Shown here one piece after another: positions 2,662 through 47,963 of a DNA stretch of 48,428 nucleotides. Within the stretch, counting starts at the first letter, position 1. Each line of letters begins with the position of its first letter. Location: the NCBI GenBank assembly GCA_030665785.1, contig DAOUZA010000003.1, forward strand, positions 1 through 48,428, read 5' to 3'. This stretch comes from Dehalococcoidia bacterium. GTDB taxonomy: Bacteria; Chloroflexota; Dehalococcoidia; GIF9; AB-539-J10. A program made the translations under genes and the position numbers. The notes beneath the pieces were generated by a model that was not told the origin of the DNA, did no database searches, and was given only the letters and a program-made list of their open reading frames with translations.

Positions 2662-2833
2662 AACCTCTCTATTACTAACTATCATCGGCTACTAATTGCC
2701 TAAGGCTTTCGAGATACCAATTTAGCCAACCCCCTATGTTATTCCATTTGGGAAGCGGAGTCAATCGGAGCTCAGAAAACACTGTTGTTTTGCTCAACTA
2801 GCTTTGCTATGATGCAATAAGAGGTGATTAATT

Positions 2834-3871
2834 ATGAAAACAGGATTGGTTTATGACCCAATTTATCTGGAGCACGATACTGGCGCTCATGTGGAGAATT
2901 CCCAGAGGTTAGTATCCATAATGTCGCATTTGGAGGAGACCGGGATGAAAGAAAAACTTATCTCGTTTTCTCCCCGCCCTGCCTCAATAGAAGAGGTAGA
3001 AATGGTGCATGCTCCAGAATATGTTTCTCGCATTAAAGGCACGGCTGAAAGTGGTGGTGGATGGCTTGACCCTGATACTGTTATGTGCCCGAGGTCCTAT
3101 GAAGTGGCTTTATATGCTGTCGGTGGGTTGCTAACCGCGGTAGAAAAAGTAATGGCAGGTGAGGTTGATTCTGCTTTTGCTTTAGTTAGACCTCCAGGAC
3201 ACCATGCCACCTGCAATAGAGCAATGGGATTCTGCATTTTCAACAATGTAGCTATTGCAGCTAAATTCGCCCTGGCTAATTTTGATATTGAGCGCATCCT
3301 TATTGCTGATTTCGATGTTCACCATGGCAATGGTACTCAGGAGACTTTTTACGGTGACCCCAAAGTCCTCTACTTCTCTACCCATGAATATCCCTTTTAT
3401 CCCGGGACTGGCTGGATAGATGAAACTGGAACTGGTGAGGGAAAAGGATATACCGTTAATTTTCCAATGTCTGCCGGCTGGGGAGATGCGCAATACCTGA
3501 GAGCTTTCAACGAGGTTTTCGTTCCAGTAGCTAAGAAATTCCAACCACAGCTTATTCTTGTTTCCGTTGGCTTTGACCCTCACTGGGCTGACGACATAGC
3601 TATGATGCAGATGAGTGTTATTGGTTTTGCCCAGATTGTTAAGATACTAAAACAGCTCGCTGTTGAGTTATGCCAAGGACGTCTTATCCTTACCTTGGAA
3701 GGGGGCTACAACCTTCAGGTAGCTGCTTCAGGGACAAAGGCTATTTTTGATGTTCTTCTGGGCAACACGGAGATAGTAGACCCGTTGGGCAAGGCGCCGC
3801 TGACAAGAGAAACCGTTGATTTTGAACAGCATCTCAAAAGAGTAAAGGAAACACATCATATAGAAGATTGA
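2834..3871 (+). CDS. Zn-dependent histone deacetylase family protein (AcuC/AphA-like)
   Basis: RPPGHHA, GFCIFNN, DFDVHHGNGTQ, LEGGY motifs. Confidence 0.92.
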   Translation: MKTGLVYDPIYLEHDTGAHVENSQRLVSIMSHLEETGMKEKLISFSPRPASIEEVEMVHAPEYVSRIKGTAESGGGWLDPDTVMCPRSYEVALYAVGGLLTAVEKVMAGEVDSAFALVRPPGHHATCNRAMGFCIFNNVAIAAKFALANFDIERILIADFDVHHGNGTQETFYGDPKVLYFSTHEYPFYPGTGWIDETGTGEGKGYTVNFPMSAGWGDAQYLRAFNEVFVPVAKKFQPQLILVSVGFDPHWADDIAMMQMSVIGFAQIVKILKQLAVELCQGRLILTLEGGYNLQVAASGTKAIFDVLLGNTEIVDPLGKAPLTRETVDFEQHLKRVKETHHIED

Positions 3872-14816: not shown

Positions 14817-14846
14817 TTGACACTTTCTCCCTGCAAAGGTTATATT
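14817..14846 (+). promoter_or_regulatory. sigma70-type promoter upstream of tRNA-Ile
   Basis: TTGACA 14817-14822, 18-bp spacer, TATATT 14841-14846. Confidence 0.6.
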
Positions 14847-14866: not shown

Positions 14867-14943
14867 GGGCCATTAGCTCAGTTGGTTAGAGCACGGTCCT
14901 GATAAGACCGGGGTCTGTGGTTCGAGTCCACAATGGCCCACCA
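14867..14943 (+). tRNA. tRNA-Ile(GAT), CCA encoded
   Basis: Acceptor GGGCCAT/ATGGCCC, D-arm TAGCTCAGTTGGTTAGAGC, anticodon arm CGGTC-CTGATAA-GACCG, T-loop GGTTCGAGTCC. Confidence 0.97.
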
Positions 14944-15053: not shown

Positions 15054-17240
15054 ATGAAGAGCAATATTGATGTATTTGAACAAGCAGTAATTCGGGCTGA
15101 GAAGCTAAGTCAAGTAGCAAGGAAAGCTGCTGAAGAATCAGCTAAGGTATCTCAAGATGCTGTAACCCGAGCTGAGGAAATTAGCCAAGCGGCTATAGAG
15201 ACCGTTGAGGAAGCAAAGAGAGCATCCCAAGATGCTATAACCCGAGCTGAGGAAATTAGCCAAGCGGCTATGAAAGCCGCCCAAGCATCAATAAAAGCAT
15301 CTCAGGAAGCAATAAGTAAGACTGAAGCATCAGCAGGGGCATTTGAAGAAATAGTAAGCAAGGTTGAAGCATCAGCCAAACTAGTCAAAGATGCCACTGA
15401 AGCATCAGTAAAAGCATCTCAGGAAAGAATAAGCAAGGCTGAGGAAATAAGCCGTGCCACCATGAAAGCCTCTAAGCAAGCAGAAAAAGCATCCCTGGAA
15501 GCCGTGAATAAGATTGAAGAAGTAAGTGGTACAGCTATAGAAGTCGCCGAGGAGGCACGGAGAACATCACAGGAAGCGGTAACTAAAGCCGAAAAAGTAA
15601 GTCAAGAAGCTATAGAGACTGTTGGAGAATCAATAAAAGCATCACAAGAAGCAATAAGCAAGAGTGAAGCATCGATTAAGCTAGCTACGGAAGCTGCAAA
15701 GGCGTCGCAAAGGACATTTGAGGAAGCAATAAACAGAGCTGACGAAGTAAGTAAAACGGCTATGGAGGCTACAGAAGCAGCATCGAGGGTGTTTCAAGAG
15801 GCCATAGGCAGAGCTGATAAGGTAAGCAAAACAGCCATGGAGACTACCACGGCGACAGCAAGAGCATCACAAAAAGCAATAAGCAAAGCTGAAGAAATAA
15901 GCCAGGTAGCTTGGGGAGCGGCTGAAGAGGCAAAAAGGGTGTCTCACGAAACGATGAATAGAGCCGAGAAGGTAAGCCAAGCAGCCAAGGAAACCGCTGA
16001 GGAAGCAAAGAAACTGTCTCAAGAAGCAACAAGCAAAGCTGAAGAAATAAGCCAGGTAGCTTGGGGAGCGGCTGAAGAGGCAAAAAGGGTGTCTCACGAA
16101 ACGATGAGTAGAGCCGAGAAGATGAGCCAAGCAGCTAAGGAAACGTCTGAGGAGGCAAAGAAACTGTCTCAAGAGGCAATAAGCAAAGCTGAGAAGATAA
16201 GCCAAACAGCCACAGAGGCACAGAAAGTATCTCAGGAGACACTAAGCAAGGTTGAACAAATAGGACAAACAGCTACAGAAGCTGCTGGAGAGGCAAGGAG
16301 AGTATCCCAAGAGGCAGAGAACAAAACTGAAGAATTGATTAAATCAGCAAGTAAAGCTGAAGAAGTAAGTAAAACAGCACAGGAAACTGTTGAAACATCT
16401 GCAAAAGCATCTCGGGAAGCGGTGAGTAAAGCTACGAAGGTAAGCAAAGCAGCTATGGAGACTGCTGAAGCATCAGCAAGGGTATTTGAAGAAGCAATGA
16501 GTATGGCTGACAGAGTAAGCAAAGAAGCCAAGGAGATTTCTGAAGCATCAGCAAGAGCAGCTCAGGAGGCAACAGGAAGAGCCGAGGAAATAAGTCAATC
16601 AGCCAAAGAATCTGCCGAAGAGGCAAAGCGAGCATCCTTAGAATCAGCAAACAAAGTTAAGCAAATAAGTCAAGCTATCATAAAGAGCAATGATGAGGCG
16701 AAGAAAGCATCTCAAGAAGCAGTAAGCGAAGCAGAGGAAATAGGCAAGATAGCTAGAGAAAAAGCTGATGAAGCGAAAAAAGCCTCTCAGGAAGCTATAA
16801 ATAAGGCTGGAAAAATAAGCGAAACGGCTAAAGAAGCTGTTGGAAAATCTACACAAGCAGCCAGGGAAGCTGTAATCGCCTCGGTAAAGGCATTCGAGGA
16901 GACAATCAACAGAGCGGAGGAAATAAGCAAATCAGCCAAGAGAGCTGCGATGGCATCAATGCAAATATTTGAGGAGGCAATAAGTAAAGTCGCTGAAGAA
17001 AGCGAGCGAGCTGAAGGGATTGCCGAGTTGCCATCAAAGATGTTTGAGGAAGCGATAAGCGAGGTTGAAATCAGCGAGGAAGAAGAGGAGAAGAAGCCAG
17101 TGAAGCCTAGCAAGGAAATCGAAACGCGTTTGAACCTCCTGGCTAAAATGTATGCTTCAAATAAAGATAAGTATGTTGAGGAAGTTGAAGAAACCGAGGA
17201 GGAAACCCTCGAAGCAAATGATGGGATAGAGGAGGATTAG
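15054..17240 (+). CDS. Uncharacterised 728-aa A/E/K/S-rich repetitive helical (coiled-coil-like) protein with 25-aa repeats and an acidic tail
   Basis: Recurring unit SQEAISKAEEISQAAxExAEEAKKA; no Cys; no Pro until about residue 660; no TM or signal peptide. Confidence 0.8.
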   Translation: MKSNIDVFEQAVIRAEKLSQVARKAAEESAKVSQDAVTRAEEISQAAIETVEEAKRASQDAITRAEEISQAAMKAAQASIKASQEAISKTEASAGAFEEIVSKVEASAKLVKDATEASVKASQERISKAEEISRATMKASKQAEKASLEAVNKIEEVSGTAIEVAEEARRTSQEAVTKAEKVSQEAIETVGESIKASQEAISKSEASIKLATEAAKASQRTFEEAINRADEVSKTAMEATEAASRVFQEAIGRADKVSKTAMETTTATARASQKAISKAEEISQVAWGAAEEAKRVSHETMNRAEKVSQAAKETAEEAKKLSQEATSKAEEISQVAWGAAEEAKRVSHETMSRAEKMSQAAKETSEEAKKLSQEAISKAEKISQTATEAQKVSQETLSKVEQIGQTATEAAGEARRVSQEAENKTEELIKSASKAEEVSKTAQETVETSAKASREAVSKATKVSKAAMETAEASARVFEEAMSMADRVSKEAKEISEASARAAQEATGRAEEISQSAKESAEEAKRASLESANKVKQISQAIIKSNDEAKKASQEAVSEAEEIGKIAREKADEAKKASQEAINKAGKISETAKEAVGKSTQAAREAVIASVKAFEETINRAEEISKSAKRAAMASMQIFEEAISKVAEESERAEGIAELPSKMFEEAISEVEISEEEEEKKPVKPSKEIETRLNLLAKMYASNKDKYVEEVEETEEETLEANDGIEED
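15881..16190 (+). repeat. 150-bp near-perfect tandem duplication inside the 728-aa gene
   Basis: AAGCAAAGCTGAAGAAATAAGCCAGGTAGCTTGGGGAGCG... starts at 15881 and 16031; AAGCAAAGCTGA recurs at 16181. Confidence 0.92.
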
Positions 17241-17351: not shown

Positions 17352-17849
17352 ATGGTAGACCCAGAAAAGCGAGTTTCCCCTAATGAGGCAGATGAGGAGG
17401 AAACTGGGCAGAAAACGAAGAAAGTTTCCCAAAAACCCAAACAGGCTATAGAATCCCTTGCTGAAATTCAACAGCGTGCCATGGCAGCTTACGCTGCTTA
17501 TGCTGAGGCGGAACGTCAAGTACAACAAGCCTATAAGGAGCAAGAACAACAAATAGAGAGAGTTTATGAAGACACTAAGCAACAAGCTGCAAAGGTTTGC
17601 GAAGAAAGCATAGTGCAGTCATTGAAAATACGTGATGAAGCTAAACAGCAAGCTGCAAAGGCTTGCGAAGAAAGCATGGCTCAAGCACTAAAAGTTCGCC
17701 AAGAAGCTGAACAACAAGCTAGCAAGGTTTGTGAAGAAAGTATAGCTCAGACATTAAAAATCCGTGAGGAAACTGAACAACAAGCCTGGGAAACCCACAG
17801 TGAAGCTATAGAAAGAACATGGCAGGTCTTTACCAAGAGCACAAAATAA
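17352..17849 (+). CDS. Uncharacterised 165-aa helical protein with three 22-aa repeats, each with one Cys
   Basis: SD AAGGAGG; QQAAKVCEESIVQSLKIRDEAK / QQAAKACEESMAQALKVRQEAE / QQASKVCEESIAQTLKIREETE. Confidence 0.8.
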   Translation: MVDPEKRVSPNEADEEETGQKTKKVSQKPKQAIESLAEIQQRAMAAYAAYAEAERQVQQAYKEQEQQIERVYEDTKQQAAKVCEESIVQSLKIRDEAKQQAAKACEESMAQALKVRQEAEQQASKVCEESIAQTLKIREETEQQAWETHSEAIERTWQVFTKSTK

Positions 17850-17911: not shown

Positions 17912-19084
17912 TTATAGTAACACAGGGATGTCATTAAAGATTTCTTCGAGTTCTCTGCCACCATATTGTAATCCCTGTCTTGCCTTTATAGCGGAGATTA
18001 AGTCAATCGCTTTGGTGAAGTAATTCGTCACTTTCCCTAGAGCGCCAAAATCAGACAGAATTACAGCAACGTCTACCGATTTTTTTTGCCTAGGATAATC
18101 CCCGCTTCGTATTAAAGCATTCGGGGCTACAGCCTTTAAATTGTCTCCAAGATCCTTGATTATGTCCATATTCATCTCACCAGGCGGGGCAGAAATAAGG
18201 TAGAGAGCTCTTCTCGCACCTTTAGGATCGCATGTGAGTGATAACTCAGTTAAGGCTTTATCCATGGCATGGGCTCCCTTATTGGTCTCAGTTACCTTGT
18301 CCCTGAAATGATTTTTCTTTCCAAGGGGGAGTTTCCTCTGCCGAATTAACGATTTACCTGTGCCAATCGCTGTCCATCCTGCCAAGGTCTGTATTATATC
18401 TCCGGCATCAAGCACCCTTGACCCGATATACTTTGGCTTTGTCTCCTCACCGGCGCAAAGTAGATTGTAAAAAGGTTCAACCAGGCGAGCATTGATCCTC
18501 GCCAGATTTTCTGCAATGGAAGAATCTTTCTTGATATACCTCTGGTTATCAACAAGAATTATAGCGTCGGCTACTAAGTATACCGATTTAAGGCAAATAG
18601 CAGTGTTGTAAATAGTTCTGCTTTCAGTTGTTTCTTCCTGGCGAAAAGGGAGAGCGATGAGGTTATAAACCGGCTTACCAACATAGCGCTCTTTTAACAG
18701 TCGGGTTAATACCCCTATTGAGCCTGACCCTGTACCACCAGCAGCACCAGCAATCAATAAGAAACCATCTGCCTCAGGGAATTGCTCTGCTGTTCTTATG
18801 GCATCTATAATCTTGTCGCCATCTTCCCTTGCTATTTCAGCACCGAGTTCACTTATCTTACCTACTCCGTGTCCTTCGGTCTTCCGCCCCCCAACAACAA
18901 TCCTGTGTCTATAATCAGGTTTGATGTTGGATAGTCCGCTCAAATCAGCAATATCAGTATTGACAGCGAAGGCACCGGCAATCACATTAAGCCCTCGCAC
19001 AACCTGCGCTCTCTTATTAAGCCAGGCAAACCTATCTACAATTCTCCCACCACATTGACCTAAACCTATAACTATTAACTTCAT
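17912..19084 (-). CDS. Tubulin/FtsZ superfamily GTPase, CetZ-like
   Basis: GLGQCGGRI, AVNTD..DL.GL, GHGVG...ELGAEIA, GAAGGTGSG signature, VDN, AGE...VLDAGDIIQTLAG, RSGDYP. Confidence 0.88.
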   Translation of the reverse strand: MKLIVIGLGQCGGRIVDRFAWLNKRAQVVRGLNVIAGAFAVNTDIADLSGLSNIKPDYRHRIVVGGRKTEGHGVGKISELGAEIAREDGDKIIDAIRTAEQFPEADGFLLIAGAAGGTGSGSIGVLTRLLKERYVGKPVYNLIALPFRQEETTESRTIYNTAICLKSVYLVADAIILVDNQRYIKKDSSIAENLARINARLVEPFYNLLCAGEETKPKYIGSRVLDAGDIIQTLAGWTAIGTGKSLIRQRKLPLGKKNHFRDKVTETNKGAHAMDKALTELSLTCDPKGARRALYLISAPPGEMNMDIIKDLGDNLKAVAPNALIRSGDYPRQKKSVDVAVILSDFGALGKVTNYFTKAIDLISAIKARQGLQYGGRELEEIFNDIPVLL

Positions 19085-19092
19085 TTGATTTT

Positions 19093-19121
19093 ATTTTAGC
19101 TAAATCTATATGATGTGTCAA
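19093..19121 (-). promoter_or_regulatory. sigma70-type promoter of the CetZ-like gene (probably leaderless)
   Basis: TTGACA-17 bp-TAAAAT, then 8 nt to the ATG, no SD. Confidence 0.7.
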
Positions 19122-19164: not shown

Positions 19165-19326
19165 CTTTATGTCATTGCGAGGAGCGGTAGCGACGAAGCA
19201 ATCTCATGCCCCCCGGGATTGCCACGTCTTTGGCTCGCAATGACACCCTTTATGTCATTGCGAGGAGCAGTAGCGACGAAGCAATCTCATGCCCCCGGGA
19301 TTGCCACGTCTTTGGCTCGCAATGAC
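19165..19326. repeat. Two tandem copies (83-bp period) of a palindromic REP/RPE-like element
   Basis: GTCATTGCGAG...GCAATC...GATTGC...CTCGCAATGAC at 19171-19244 and 19254-19326. Confidence 0.9.
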
Positions 19327-19351
19327 GTATGGGAGTTTAAATTACCCAAGG

Positions 19352-35181: not shown

Positions 35182-35490
35182 TCACAATTTGATATCTACT
35201 TGCACTCCAGAAGGTAAGTTAAGTTGACTTAGAGCATCTATGGTTTTAGCGCTAGGTTGCAAGATGTCTATTAACCGCTTATGTGTGCGAATTTCAAACT
35301 GTTCTCTAGAATCCTTATCAATATTCGGGGAACGGATAACGCAAAACTTCTCTATTTTTGTAGGCAAGGGTATAGGACCAACAACTATAGCTCCAGTGCG
35401 TTCCACAGTATCCACTATCTGTCTTACTGACTGATCAACCAGTCTATGATCAAAACCTTTTATTTTAACCCGGATTTTTTGATTGCTCAT
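35182..35490 (-). CDS. rpsJ: 30S ribosomal protein S10
   Basis: [25 protein letters not shown]. Confidence 0.98.
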
Positions 35491-37572
35491 CTATCTCACC
35501 ACCATCTCAGCCATGTACTGCTTGGCTAAATCATCAGGTAATTCCTGATAACGACAAAATTCCATAGTGCAATTTGCCCTTCCCTGGCTGAGGGATCTCA
35601 AATCTCCAGCGAAACCAAAGATTTCCGATAGAGGAACGGAACAACGAATAATAGAAAAGGTCTCGTGGGTTTCAATGTTTTCAATATGGGCTCTTCTCGA
35701 ATTTAAATCACCTAAAATTTCCCCTAGAAATTGCTCCGGAGTGACTATTCCTACCTTCATAATTGGTTCGAGCAGGATGGGCTTAGCCTTAGGCATACCG
35801 TTCTTCACCGCAATGGACGCTGCTATGTTAAACGCTAAATCAGAAGAATCGACTTCATGGAAACTACCATCGTATAGAGTTACTTTAATGTCCACCGTAG
35901 GATATCCAGATACTCCGCTTTGCAAAGCTGCTCGAACACCTGCTTCTATAGCAGAAATGAATTCCTTAGGTATGACTCCACTGCGGATTTGATTAAAAAA
36001 GGCAAAACCACTGCCTCTCTCACCAGGCTCCAGCCTAAGCCAAACATGTCCATACTGTCCTTTACCTCCAGACTGACGAATAAATTTCCCTTCAGATTCT
36101 ACTGGGATGGTTATTGTTTCCTTATAAGCGACTTGCGGCTTACCAACATTTACCTTTATCCCAAATTCACGCGAAGCACGCTCTGTAAGAACCTCAAGAT
36201 GAAGCTCACCCATGCCTGAAATAATAGTTTGACCAGTCTCTGAATTCTGGTAACACTTGAAAGTTGGGTCTTCATCCACAAGTTTATTTAAAACATTATG
36301 TAATTTATCCTGGTCAGCCTTACTCTTAGGTTCAATTGCCATGGAAAGTACTGGCTCAGGAAAACGTATAGACTCAAGGAGCAAAGGAGAGGCAACATTG
36401 CAAATCGTGTCACCGGTAAATGTCTTTCTAAGCCCAACAACAGCTACAATGGCGCCTGTGTCAGCGTCATCTACTTCCTCCCGGCGATTAGCATGCATAA
36501 GATATAGCTTTCCCATCCGTTCCCTTTCATTCCTCGTGGAGTTAAGAATCTGGGCCCCGGCTTTTACTTTTCCTGAATACACACGGAGATAACTCAATCT
36601 GCCCATAAATGGGTCAGAAACTGTTTTAAAAACCAACGCTGCAAGAGCATCTTCATCATTGGGCCGACAAATAATTTCCTTCTCGCCATTAAGTCCCATT
36701 GCAGAGATAGGAGGAATATCCAGAGGCGAAGGAAGATAATCAACAACGGCATCGAGCAGAGGACGTATCCCTTTACCCCTCAGAGCGCTACCACAAAGAA
36801 CGGGAACTGCTTGATTGGCTATGGTTAACTTTCTTATAGCAACTTTTAGTAATGAGACTGGAATATCTTGACCTTCGAGATACATTTGCATAATCTGATC
36901 ATCACTTTCAGCTAACCTCTCAATTAATTTTTGACGGTACTCAGTCGCCATAGCCCTGTCATTCTCAGGAATAGGTTCCTTTACAGGCATTAAATCAGGA
37001 TCATCAGGGAAAGTAATAGCTTTATTCTCCACAAGGTCAATAACTCCTCGGAAAAGATTTTCAACCCCTAGAGGGAGCTGTATAGGTAACGGTTTAGCTT
37101 GAAGCCGCTCTTCCACCATTCTTATAGCGTGATAAAAGTCAGCACCGACTCTGTCCATCTTGTTAAGAAAACAGAGCCTAGCTACATTATATTTATCTGC
37201 CTGGCGCCACACCGTCTCCGATTGAGCTTCGACGCCCGCTAAAGCATCGAGTATTACGATGCCACCATCTAACACACGGAGACTGCGTTCTACTTCAGCG
37301 GTGAAATCTACATGCCCAGGAGTATCAATGATGTTGATGCGGTGCTCACGCCAGTAGCAGGTAGTAGCCGCGGAAGTAATAGTAATGCCACGCTCACGTT
37401 CCTGCTGCATCCAATCCATGGTCGCAGTGCCTTCATCTACCTCGCCAATCTTGTAGGTGTACCCTGTATGGTAGAGCATCCTCTCCGTAGCAGTAGTTTT
37501 ACCAGCATCTATATGGGCAATAATGCCCATATTACGTATCTTTTCTAAAGGGAAAGTTCGTGACACGCCCAC
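35491..37572 (-). CDS. fusA: Elongation factor G
   Basis: AHIDAGKTT, ERGITI, DTPGHVDF, NKMD, GMGELHL, QSGGKGQYGH; GTG 37566 is a plausible alternative start. Confidence 0.98.
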   Translation of the reverse strand: MGVSRTFPLEKIRNMGIIAHIDAGKTTATERMLYHTGYTYKIGEVDEGTATMDWMQQERERGITITSAATTCYWREHRINIIDTPGHVDFTAEVERSLRVLDGGIVILDALAGVEAQSETVWRQADKYNVARLCFLNKMDRVGADFYHAIRMVEERLQAKPLPIQLPLGVENLFRGVIDLVENKAITFPDDPDLMPVKEPIPENDRAMATEYRQKLIERLAESDDQIMQMYLEGQDIPVSLLKVAIRKLTIANQAVPVLCGSALRGKGIRPLLDAVVDYLPSPLDIPPISAMGLNGEKEIICRPNDEDALAALVFKTVSDPFMGRLSYLRVYSGKVKAGAQILNSTRNERERMGKLYLMHANRREEVDDADTGAIVAVVGLRKTFTGDTICNVASPLLLESIRFPEPVLSMAIEPKSKADQDKLHNVLNKLVDEDPTFKCYQNSETGQTIISGMGELHLEVLTERASREFGIKVNVGKPQVAYKETITIPVESEGKFIRQSGGKGQYGHVWLRLEPGERGSGFAFFNQIRSGVIPKEFISAIEAGVRAALQSGVSGYPTVDIKVTLYDGSFHEVDSSDLAFNIAASIAVKNGMPKAKPILLEPIMKVGIVTPEQFLGEILGDLNSRRAHIENIETHETFSIIRCSVPLSEIFGFAGDLRSLSQGRANCTMEFCRYQELPDDLAKQYMAEMVVR

Positions 37573-47358: not shown

Positions 47359-47691
47359 TTATGGTCGAAGGAAACCTACTATCTCTTTAATTACTTCATT
47401 CATCTTCTCAGGTTTGAGATGACCAGCTCTATACAGGATGATGTGGCGGTCTGCCGTAAATATGCGGTTTGGTCGCAAATTGCTCCTTTGCCTGAGTGTC
47501 CCAGTTTCAAAATCATTCTCATCAATTGGAACCGCGTATCTGTCTCTAACTGAGTGGCTAGTTATCTGGCAGAGAATTAAATCATCCCCTTCCAATTCTG
47601 CAATTACTAAAGCTGGTCGTCGTTTAGCTCGAGTTAAATCTGAGAAGGGGAAAGGAACAACCACTACATCCCCTTTTACAAATCTCTCCAT
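47359..47691 (-). CDS. PemK/MazF-family type II toxin
   Basis: KGDVVVVPFPFSD...KRRPALVI...ITS. Confidence 0.9.
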   Translation of the reverse strand: MERFVKGDVVVVPFPFSDLTRAKRRPALVIAELEGDDLILCQITSHSVRDRYAVPIDENDFETGTLRQRSNLRPNRIFTADRHIILYRAGHLKPEKMNEVIKEIVGFLRP

Positions 47692-47870
47692 GCTTCATTT
47701 TCCTCAGGTTTCAGCCAATCTTTTTTAAGAGATGTTTCGCTTGCGATTGCTAGCCCCATCTTTTGTTCCGAAGTTTTAGCCTCTAAAAAGCGTATAAAAT
47801 CCAATATCTCTATGAGATAAGGCTCAGGAAGTTTTTCTATCTCCTTAAAAATTAATTCTCGCGCTTTCAT
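47676..47870 (-). CDS. DUF2281-like putative antitoxin
   Basis: IEKLPE..L.EILDFI.FL ... SETSL.KDW..PEENEAW.DL; SD AAGGAGGT before ATG 47870; overlaps the toxin start by 16 nt. Confidence 0.75.
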   Translation of the reverse strand: MKARELIFKEIEKLPEPYLIEILDFIRFLEAKTSEQKMGLAIASETSLKKDWLKPEENEAWRDL

Positions 47871-47963
47871 TTTTTCTACCTCCTTAACCTTATTTTCAGG
47901 CTGTTTAATTTTGATTCCCCGTTCAATTTCAGCCATCTTGGAGGTGTTTCACCCCCAAATTTT

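Follow-up and report, generated by a model that had tools for sequence, protein, structure and literature searches.

Does a gene for a tubulin of the archaeal CetZ type belong in a bacterial chromosome, and what might its product do there? The question is raised by a contig of a Dehalococcoidia bacterium (GenBank assembly GCA_030665785.1, contig DAOUZA010000003.1; "the window" below is the whole stretch analyzed, positions 1 to 48,428), in which a preliminary description, made from the letters alone, had placed such a gene at positions 17912 to 19084. The open reading frame (ORF) there is genuine; it lies on the minus strand and fills exactly this interval, while the plus-strand frame contains many stops. 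All the motifs quoted in that description are present in its 390-residue product, a set far beyond chance. We refer to the product as the CetZ-like protein, a member of a family that is large, old, vertically kept, and bacterial. The gene and its motifs are as follows:

17912..19084, minus strand: cetZ-like gene, type A orthologue (types are defined below), 390 amino acids plus stop, identified by Pfam, NCBIfam, PDB, tree, and hhalign
19066-19046, minus strand: T1 motif GLGQCGG, residues 7 to 13, in which GQCGG is residues 9 to 13
18748-18722, minus strand: T4 motif GAAGGTGSG, residues 113 to 121, in which AGGTGSG is residues 115 to 121
18415-18398, minus strand: T7 motif VLDAGD, residues 224 to 229, with D229 aligned to E218 of CetZ1
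18346-18299, minus strand: basic M-loop segment IRQRKLPLGKKNHFRD, residues 247 to 262
17932-17915, minus strand: C-terminal peptide DIPVLL, within the C terminus ...ELEEIFNDIPVLL

Family assignment and conserved residues

Pfam searches located the Tubulin GTPase domain (PF00091) at residues 3 to 183 (E value of 1.7e-30; 107.1 bits against a cut-off of 33) and CetZ_C (PF21011) at residues 188 to 360 (7.7e-18; 65 bits against a cut-off of 21.6), the latter covering positions 2 to 179 of the 180 in the profile. Neither FtsZ_C nor Tubulin_C of Pfam matched at an E value of ≤1, and Tubulin_2 remained below its cut-off (11.9 versus 27 bits). The NCBIfam FtsZ equivalog TIGR00065 failed, with 56 bits against a cut-off of 295.2 and only the N-terminal half matched. 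The best PDB match was 4B46 (E value of 1.4e-41, residues 1 to 353), followed by 4B45 (3.8e-23) and 3ZID (3.5e-14), with FtsZ entries from 6.7e-10 or weaker and tubulins at about 1e-6 or weaker. Entries 4B46 and 4B45 are CetZ1 and CetZ2 of Haloferax volcanii (PMC9856176; cited papers are used here and below through the portions of their text available). Identity to a named Haloferax CetZ was 34% over 346 residues (2e-42), and Escherichia coli FtsZ gave an E value of 0.066. When a profile of 27 orthologues was aligned by hhalign with a profile of canonical-side CetZ, the probability was 100% (E value of 2.3e-75, 372 columns). A comparison of CetZ and FtsZ hidden Markov models (HMMs), which had been suggested as a check, thus came out for CetZ, with CetZ_C passed, the FtsZ model failed, and CetZ1, CetZ2, and 3ZID as the best solved relatives.

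The likeness to CetZ1 and the canonical CetZ extends to the Tubulin GTPase plus CetZ_C architecture, a length of 390 versus 395 residues, alignment from end to end, an acidic T7 residue, an extended loop where the M-loop lies, and a C-terminal peptide that is short, hydrophobic, and conserved. The CetZ-like protein differs from canonical CetZ in its bacterial host, in an identity of only 30 to 36%, in its place outside their clade (see below), and in T1, which is GQCGG here and mostly GQAGG in canonical-side representatives. With bacterial FtsZ it shares the superfamily, the T1, T4, and T7 motifs, and a C-terminal D-I-P-x-hydrophobic-L pattern, but it fails TIGR00065, lacks FtsZ_C, and is encoded beside rpsI and coiled-coil genes rather than in a division and cell wall (dcw) or ftsA context. 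As for TubZ and PhuZ, there was no phage match and no bacterial TubZ plasmid among the matches shown, and Tubulin_2 is below its cut-off.

The residues expected to handle GTP are strongly conserved. Residues G7, G9, G12, G116, G119, N160, N180, and N198 are invariant across 94 diverse relatives, and D226, G228, and D229 across the 27 orthologues. AGGTGSG matches the T4 signature of the superfamily, [SAG]GGTG[SA]G. The acidic catalytic residue of T7 is present by alignment, D229 standing opposite E218 of CetZ1, whose E218A mutant forms hyperstable polymers (bioRxiv 10.1101/2024.04.08.588506).

Two structural remarks of the preliminary description had to be revised. The basic segment IRQRKLPLGKKNHFRD does occupy the M-loop position, as proposed, but it is no insertion relative to CetZ, since both pairwise alignments (with 4B46 and with the named Haloferax CetZ) show the loop of CetZ1 to exceed it by about 10 residues. 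Proteins of the CetZ1 type have a long M-loop of 14 to 26 residues (PMC9856176), and that of the CetZ-like protein is shorter and basic, without an LLSRL-type tip. The supposed lack of a C-terminal peptide was a mistake, as the orthologues share a conserved DIPxLL end. While residues ~360 to 380 are poorly conserved, the final six, DIPVLL, are among the best conserved of the protein; across the 27 orthologues I386 does not vary, and P387 and L389 hardly do. Every one of the 60 copies of type A terminates in D/E-I-P-x-L-[LI], and the tail of type B is (K)DIPSLL. In CetZ1 the corresponding tail is LESLF, and this, together with the hydrophobic M-loop tip, is required for rod formation (bioRxiv 10.1101/2024.04.08.588506).

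Phylogenetic position and host

A tree was computed with IQ-TREE (LG+C20+F+G4 PMSF, 56 rows, 403 columns) with E. coli FtsZ as the sole outgroup; most rows are representatives without names, and the sample holds no labelled CetZ of Thermococcales, the published family boundary (PMC9856176). The canonical CetZ clade comprised 25 rows, including four named haloarchaeal CetZ, with a support of 100/100 and a stem of 0.72. The CetZ-like protein fell outside it, in a 100/98 group of Dehalococcoidia sequences, and it is for this reason that we call it CetZ-like rather than CetZ. Nor did the phylogeny place it within a canonical FtsZ, TubZ, or FtsZl clade. Of the original label "archaeal-type CetZ," the CetZ kind therefore stands, and the notion of an archaeal gene in a bacterium does not. 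Further "GQCG" groups adjoin the Dehalococcoidia group in an order that the tree does not settle, and the deeper groups of this "QCGG side" include one of 418 to 437 residues found on contigs up to 3.1 Mb. Constraining the 30 QCGG-side rows to monophyly was not rejected (log-likelihood difference of 1.61, approximately unbiased test P of 0.355), but since the free tree did not settle it, no single bacterial clade is claimed. The available text of PMC9871819 places "CetZ-like" groups of Chloroflexota and Dehalococcoidia outside the node defining canonical CetZ, and our sequence-based placement agrees with it. Those proteins, described there as "sparse paraphyletic groups" (Santana-Molina et al. 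2023) with a CetZ C-terminal HMM match of about 1e-10, almost certainly belong to the same family.

The family is abundant. A word-indexed protein search gave 5581 matches at an E value of ≤0.001 among 8000 scored, of which the best 120 are 65 to 95% identical and ~390 residues long; seven of these 120 have an organism name from NCBI, in each case Chloroflexi, Chloroflexota, or Dehalococcoidia. In a library of representatives at 50% identity there were 822 matches at ≤0.001 and 67 at ≤1e-30. A scan of one genome per species yielded at least 641 pattern matches, at least 557 of them encoding a relative. Locus analyses below concern the best 75 of these at least 557 loci (numbered with the prefix L) plus the window; 71 of the 75 have titles beginning with Dehalococcoid- or Chloroflex-. 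Labels among the relatives include "tubulin/FtsZ family protein," "tubulin-like protein CetZ" (two rows, Joint Genome Institute), and "cell division protein FtsZ," the last as foreseen in the preliminary description, which had considered automatic annotation as ftsZ possible.

The host is bacterial, as had been said of the flanking genes, and belongs to Dehalococcoidales (Chloroflexota), the order whose MAGs supply the closest relatives. The window carries recA, recX, secY, secDF, gyrA, the gene for the beta subunit of oxaloacetate decarboxylase (oadB), the str, S10, spc, and alpha ribosomal operons, and an rpoA with the bacterial C-terminal domain of the alpha subunit. Three independent metagenome-assembled genomes (MAGs) of Dehalococcoidales (L001 to L003, 74 to 85% identity) keep its gene order on both sides, namely, rpoA...rpsI, the cetZ-like gene, two genes for coiled-coil proteins (CC-small and CC-large, see below), oadB, recX, and recA. 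The junctions are therefore not assembly artefacts, and the suspicion that the contig might be chimeric at this point was dispelled. The gene is ordinary in G+C content (0.442, and 0.396 at third codon positions) and in codon usage (r of 0.81 versus the other genes). It is under purifying selection, with a ratio of nonsynonymous to synonymous substitution rates (dN/dS) of 0.05 to 0.15 against five orthologues.

Four loci (L057, L070, L074, and L009) come from MAGs with unexpected titles, which name Syntrophaceae, Gemmatimonadales, Deltaproteobacteria, or simply a "bacterium." In the tree, the cetZ-like genes of these loci lie within the Dehalococcoidales sequences on very short branches, and L070 is near identical to L048 and L050 (branches of 0.012). 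Because of this near identity, these loci are probably mis-binned contigs.

A phage, plasmid, or defence origin was also considered and rejected. There was no match to the CetZ-like protein among 50,697 phage records, and the sole PHROG match was weak (5.9e-05, function not assigned). The 33 plasmid records that matched, all at <60% identity, correspond, wherever the organism is shown, to CetZ paralogues on haloarchaeal megaplasmids: haloarchaeal genus names appear in all 15 listed rows and for 10 genera in the summary, with three organism names not shown. No bacterial TubZ plasmid was found among the plasmid matches shown.

Paralogues, coiled-coil neighbours, and promoter

The 75 loci and the window contain 100 cetZ-like copies, which we sorted by their neighbours. 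Type A (60 copies) was defined by an ORF that converges on the cetZ-like gene, starts within 400 nt past its stop, and is rich in A, E, K, Q, and S, and type B (25 copies) by a same-strand ORF of 450 to 600 residues directly downstream. The latter is dnaX, followed by ybaB and recR, as identified by Pfam in the two loci checked (L072 and L060). Of the 15 unclassed copies, three form a third, divergent type C, which has 38 to 44% identity and lies in tandem upstream of another copy (L059:8764, L033:7205, and L075:1283). The window has one copy only, of type A. Second copies occur in L026, L030, L035, L040 to L044, L051 to L056, L059, L060, L063, L065, L066, L068, L069, and L071 to L075, and type B is often found just past the coiled-coil pair of a type A copy. 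Several paralogues per genome are also a feature of canonical CetZ, as is a host with a surface layer (S-layer) and without peptidoglycan.

In the window, the neighbours that define type A are these:

17352..17849, plus strand: CC-small, 165 amino acids, convergent with the cetZ-like gene across a 62-nt gap
15054..17240, plus strand: CC-large, 728 amino acids, upstream of CC-small on the same strand

CC-small is alpha-helical, with 22-residue repeats and a hydrophobic period of 3.67, and has a conserved center, QQRA..AY.AY.EAER, and a conserved C-terminal W-x-[IV]-[FY]-x-K. In CC-large, a 25-residue unit is repeated ~26 times, and the hydrophobic period is 3.57 (25/7). The protein is rich in A (20%), E (18%), S (11%), and K (11%) and ranges from 464 to 800 residues in 48 homologues. 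Both ends have a conserved motif, FE.AV.RAE.LS at the N terminus and RL.FLA.MY at the C terminus, the latter followed by an acidic tail. Neither protein had a relative in Pfam, PADLOC, or PDB beyond designed or generic helical bundles, kinship between the two was not detectable, and inspection of both sequences by eye revealed no signal peptide or membrane segment. In the 62-nt gap between CC-small and the cetZ-like gene, no intrinsic terminator turned up (fold z-score of 0.22). Upstream of CC-large, on the side of the oxaloacetate decarboxylase gene, is a solitary tRNA-Ile(GAT) gene (14867-14943, plus strand) located between these two. A promoter-like site with 11 out of 12 matches (14817-14846) precedes the tRNA gene, which may be the first gene in the transcript that covers CC-large and CC-small.

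The three genes form a conserved neighbourhood. In the tree of copies, the 60 type A copies and two unclassed ones make up a single 62-row clade (Shimodaira-Hasegawa-like support of 99), with types B and C outside, and members of this clade have CC-small (100 to 260 residues) in 55 cases and CC-large (≥450 residues) in 48. The outer flanks vary. The upstream neighbours of 56 copies fall into 27 clusters, the most common being GAPDH (16), YjeF (5), and rpsI (4, including the window), and the genes past the coiled-coil pair fall into 16 clusters among 48 copies. As the module is kept while its surroundings change, the three genes move together through different settings, and this joint travel is the main argument that they would be functionally linked. 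Archaeal cetZ genes, on the other hand, neighbour cofactor, nucleotide, and pilus genes (PMC9856176). Genes of no assigned role around archaeal tubulin-like genes often encode coiled coils (PMC9871819). A linkage to the ribosomal operon was considered and rejected, since only L001 to L003 have rpsI upstream and the gene has a promoter of its own; the module adjoins rpsI in the lineage of the window, having moved there.

In L010, a gene for a 391-residue protein with a bactofilin domain (2687-3862; PF04519, 34 bits against a cut-off of 27.9) precedes the type A gene by 74 nt in the same orientation, and L021 has an equivalent gene directly upstream. The cluster in these two loci thus comprises a bactofilin, a tubulin-like protein, and two coiled-coil proteins.

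Upstream of the cetZ-like gene is one further element:

19093..19121, minus strand: promoter-like site, TTGACA (19121-19116), 17-nt spacer, TAAAAT (19098-19093), 11 out of 12 matches

The end of the -10 element is 8 nt from the ATG, and no Shine-Dalgarno sequence precedes it, so a leaderless mRNA is predicted. In the subclade of the window, which accounts for 27 of the 60 type A copies, the -10 element likewise ends 6 to 8 nt short of the start. In a further 24 the promoter lies 25 to 31 nt upstream, and the remaining 9 have none within 60 nt. The same promoter is present in 0 of the 25 type B copies, 23 of which have a Shine-Dalgarno-like sequence. Judged from these patterns, the cetZ-like gene probably has a strong promoter of its own, giving a leaderless transcript in the subclade of the window.

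The spacer between rpsI and the cetZ-like gene is 267 nt in the window and 86 nt in L001. At 19168-19330 it holds a palindromic element of ~75 nt, GTCATTGCGAG...CTCGCAATGAC, in two tandem copies with a period of 82, which as RNA would fold at -73.7 kcal/mol (z-score of -5.3). Its core has one match, in L027, and none in the other 75 loci. The element looks like a repetitive extragenic palindrome (REP) or miniature inverted-repeat transposable element (MITE) insertion and may terminate the ribosomal operon.

Possible roles of the CetZ-like protein

According to the available text of PMC10608941, Dehalococcoidales and SAR202 have no dcw peptidoglycan genes but keep mraZ, mraW, ftsA, and ftsZ together, and the wall of Dehalococcoides mccartyi is S-layer-like. 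Since canonical ftsZ is kept, the CetZ-like protein adds to FtsZ and is no substitute for it. The reading we favour, holding it about as readily as we doubt it, is that of a GTP-driven shape or envelope filament beside FtsZ, probably with coiled-coil partners, in Dehalococcoidales. The CetZ-like protein would most likely bind and hydrolyse GTP and polymerise head to tail, like CetZ1, FtsZ, and tubulin, and the filament would act alongside the canonical FtsZ/FtsA pair, not in its place, organising the shape or envelope of cells free of peptidoglycan and covered by an S-layer. CC-small and CC-large would probably bundle, space, or tether the filaments, and the conserved DIPxLL peptide could be a docking site for a partner.

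A published proteome of D. mccartyi BTF08 bears on this proposal (PMC8163811, available text). Its table runs recR, a hypothetical protein, dnaX, an absent tag, three hypothetical proteins, btf_0551 (annotated "tubulin/FtsZ GTPase"), and GAPDH, which is the order of 16 type A loci, and by annotation and gene order, the sole basis of this match, btf_0551 may be the type A gene of this strain. Proteomics detected its product. Pure culture, in which cells are disc shaped, was the only setting in which btf_0551 and btf_0548 were quantified above the median; in co-culture, with barrel-shaped cells, neither was quantified, and btf_0550 was quantified in all four conditions (PMC8163811). In H. volcanii, the change from plates to rods is driven by CetZ1 (bioRxiv 10.1101/2024.04.08.588506). 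HalB, a family of polymers related to shape in haloarchaea, is among bacteria most abundant in Chloroflexota (PMC11459167).

Several observations weigh against a shape filament with coiled-coil partners. The tie to the coiled-coil genes is one of synteny only, between genes that are convergent and not co-transcribed. Type A is itself defined by the coiled-coil neighbour; what escapes this circularity is the grouping of the 60 copies in a single clade and the absence of any copy classed A outside the 62-row clade. Four tandem copies outside that clade (L029_2586, L067_1306, L033_7205, and L075_1283) have coiled-coil ORFs 1240 to 2110 nt downstream, past an intervening copy, and the clade member L057 has no coiled-coil genes despite 5.4 kb of downstream sequence. 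The function of CetZ1 is known from one haloarchaeon, whose protein is 34% identical. A single study supplies the shape correlation in D. mccartyi, with growth rate as a confounder, and its authors read the change as reduced cell division (PMC8163811). Finally, the tail DIPVLL resembles the ...DIPAFL... of E. coli FtsZ and equally fits a role in division.

This last point leads to a less probable but serious alternative, an accessory division protein that joins or modulates the FtsZ ring and docks FtsA (or SepF) through a C-terminal peptide mimicking that of FtsZ. In E. coli, this peptide of FtsZ binds FtsA and ZipA. Dehalococcoidales have kept ftsA (PMC10608941), btf_0551 goes up and down together with the FtsZ btf_0595, both being grouped under cell division by the authors (PMC8163811), and in many archaea two FtsZ-type proteins serve division. 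However, canonical archaeal CetZ have similar acidic-hydrophobic tails (...DIDSLL, ...IDPLF, and LESLF in CetZ1), so a tail of this kind is no hallmark of FtsZ. The protein carries a CetZ-type C-terminal domain and not FtsZ_C, the cetZ-like gene is never beside ftsA or ftsZ in the window or the loci examined, and up to three paralogues with dedicated coiled-coil partners look like a separate system. A tubulin that handles DNA, segregating or positioning the chromosome as TubZ or PhuZ do, seems improbable. Type B is directly upstream of dnaX-ybaB-recR in all 25 copies so classed, and the module of the window is near recA-recX, but the dnaX adjacency may be positional and concerns type B, not the type A of the window, no TubR-like or centromere partner was seen, Tubulin_2 fell short of its cut-off, and the database matches point away from phages and, where an organism is shown, to haloarchaeal plasmids. 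That the gene is an artefact or a recent import, whether through chimerism or contamination of the assembly or through fresh transfer of an archaeal gene that has yet to gain a role, is hardly credible. Recent papers, among them PMC9856176, describe CetZ as archaea-specific, and a few MAG titles are not of Chloroflexota (L057, L070, and L074). Against this, the shared gene order on both sides in three other MAGs, the low dN/dS, and the ordinary composition led us to reject both variants, the protein stands outside the canonical archaeal clade, relatives are encoded at no fewer than 557 loci of species-representative genomes, and the near identity of the oddly titled loci to those of Dehalococcoidales suggests mis-binning.

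A bolder form of the shape filament reading, tentative and in our judgement doubtful, is that Dehalococcoidia build a dedicated tubulin cytoskeleton. As many as three CetZ-like paralogues would contribute to it, and one paralogue would be tied to the two coiled-coil proteins as rod-like filament partners, similar to microtubule-associated proteins. This system would set the disc shape of Dehalococcoides instead of a cell wall. If this were true, the CetZ lineage would not be archaea-specific and would either be older than the canonical archaeal family or reflect a very early exchange between domains, and it would join other "archaeal" traits of envelope and shape in Chloroflexota. This abundant and strongly conserved bacterial branch occurs in the group to which Dehalococcoides belongs, a genus both cultivated and important in the environment, and it raises two testable questions: whether a CetZ-type filament shapes a bacterial cell consisting of membrane and S-layer only, and what the C-terminal peptides of the tubulin family dock to in such cells. 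It is also a warning for annotation, as these CetZ-like genes are not ftsZ.

The existence of CetZ-like proteins in Dehalococcoidia is already in print (PMC9871819), and in the available text of papers on CetZ, some as late as 2026, the family is still described as archaea-specific. Our literature search found no study of the function or genomic context of the CetZ-like proteins of Chloroflexota or Dehalococcoidia, and the available part of PMC9871819 gave no account of their abundance, paralogues, neighbourhood in Dehalococcoidia, promoter, tail, or expression. The three paralogue types, the coiled-coil module, the conserved promoter, the tail motif, and the link to the D. mccartyi proteome appear, within the literature searched, to be new.

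Two other observations concern the window at large. On the minus strand at 35182-37572, rpsJ comes directly after fusA (EF-G), and a tuf gene is lacking at this boundary of the str and S10 operons. At 47359-47936, also on the minus strand, an ORF for a MazF/PemK-like toxin (110 amino acids) overlaps a DUF2281 ORF (86 amino acids), and the two look like a type II toxin-antitoxin pair.

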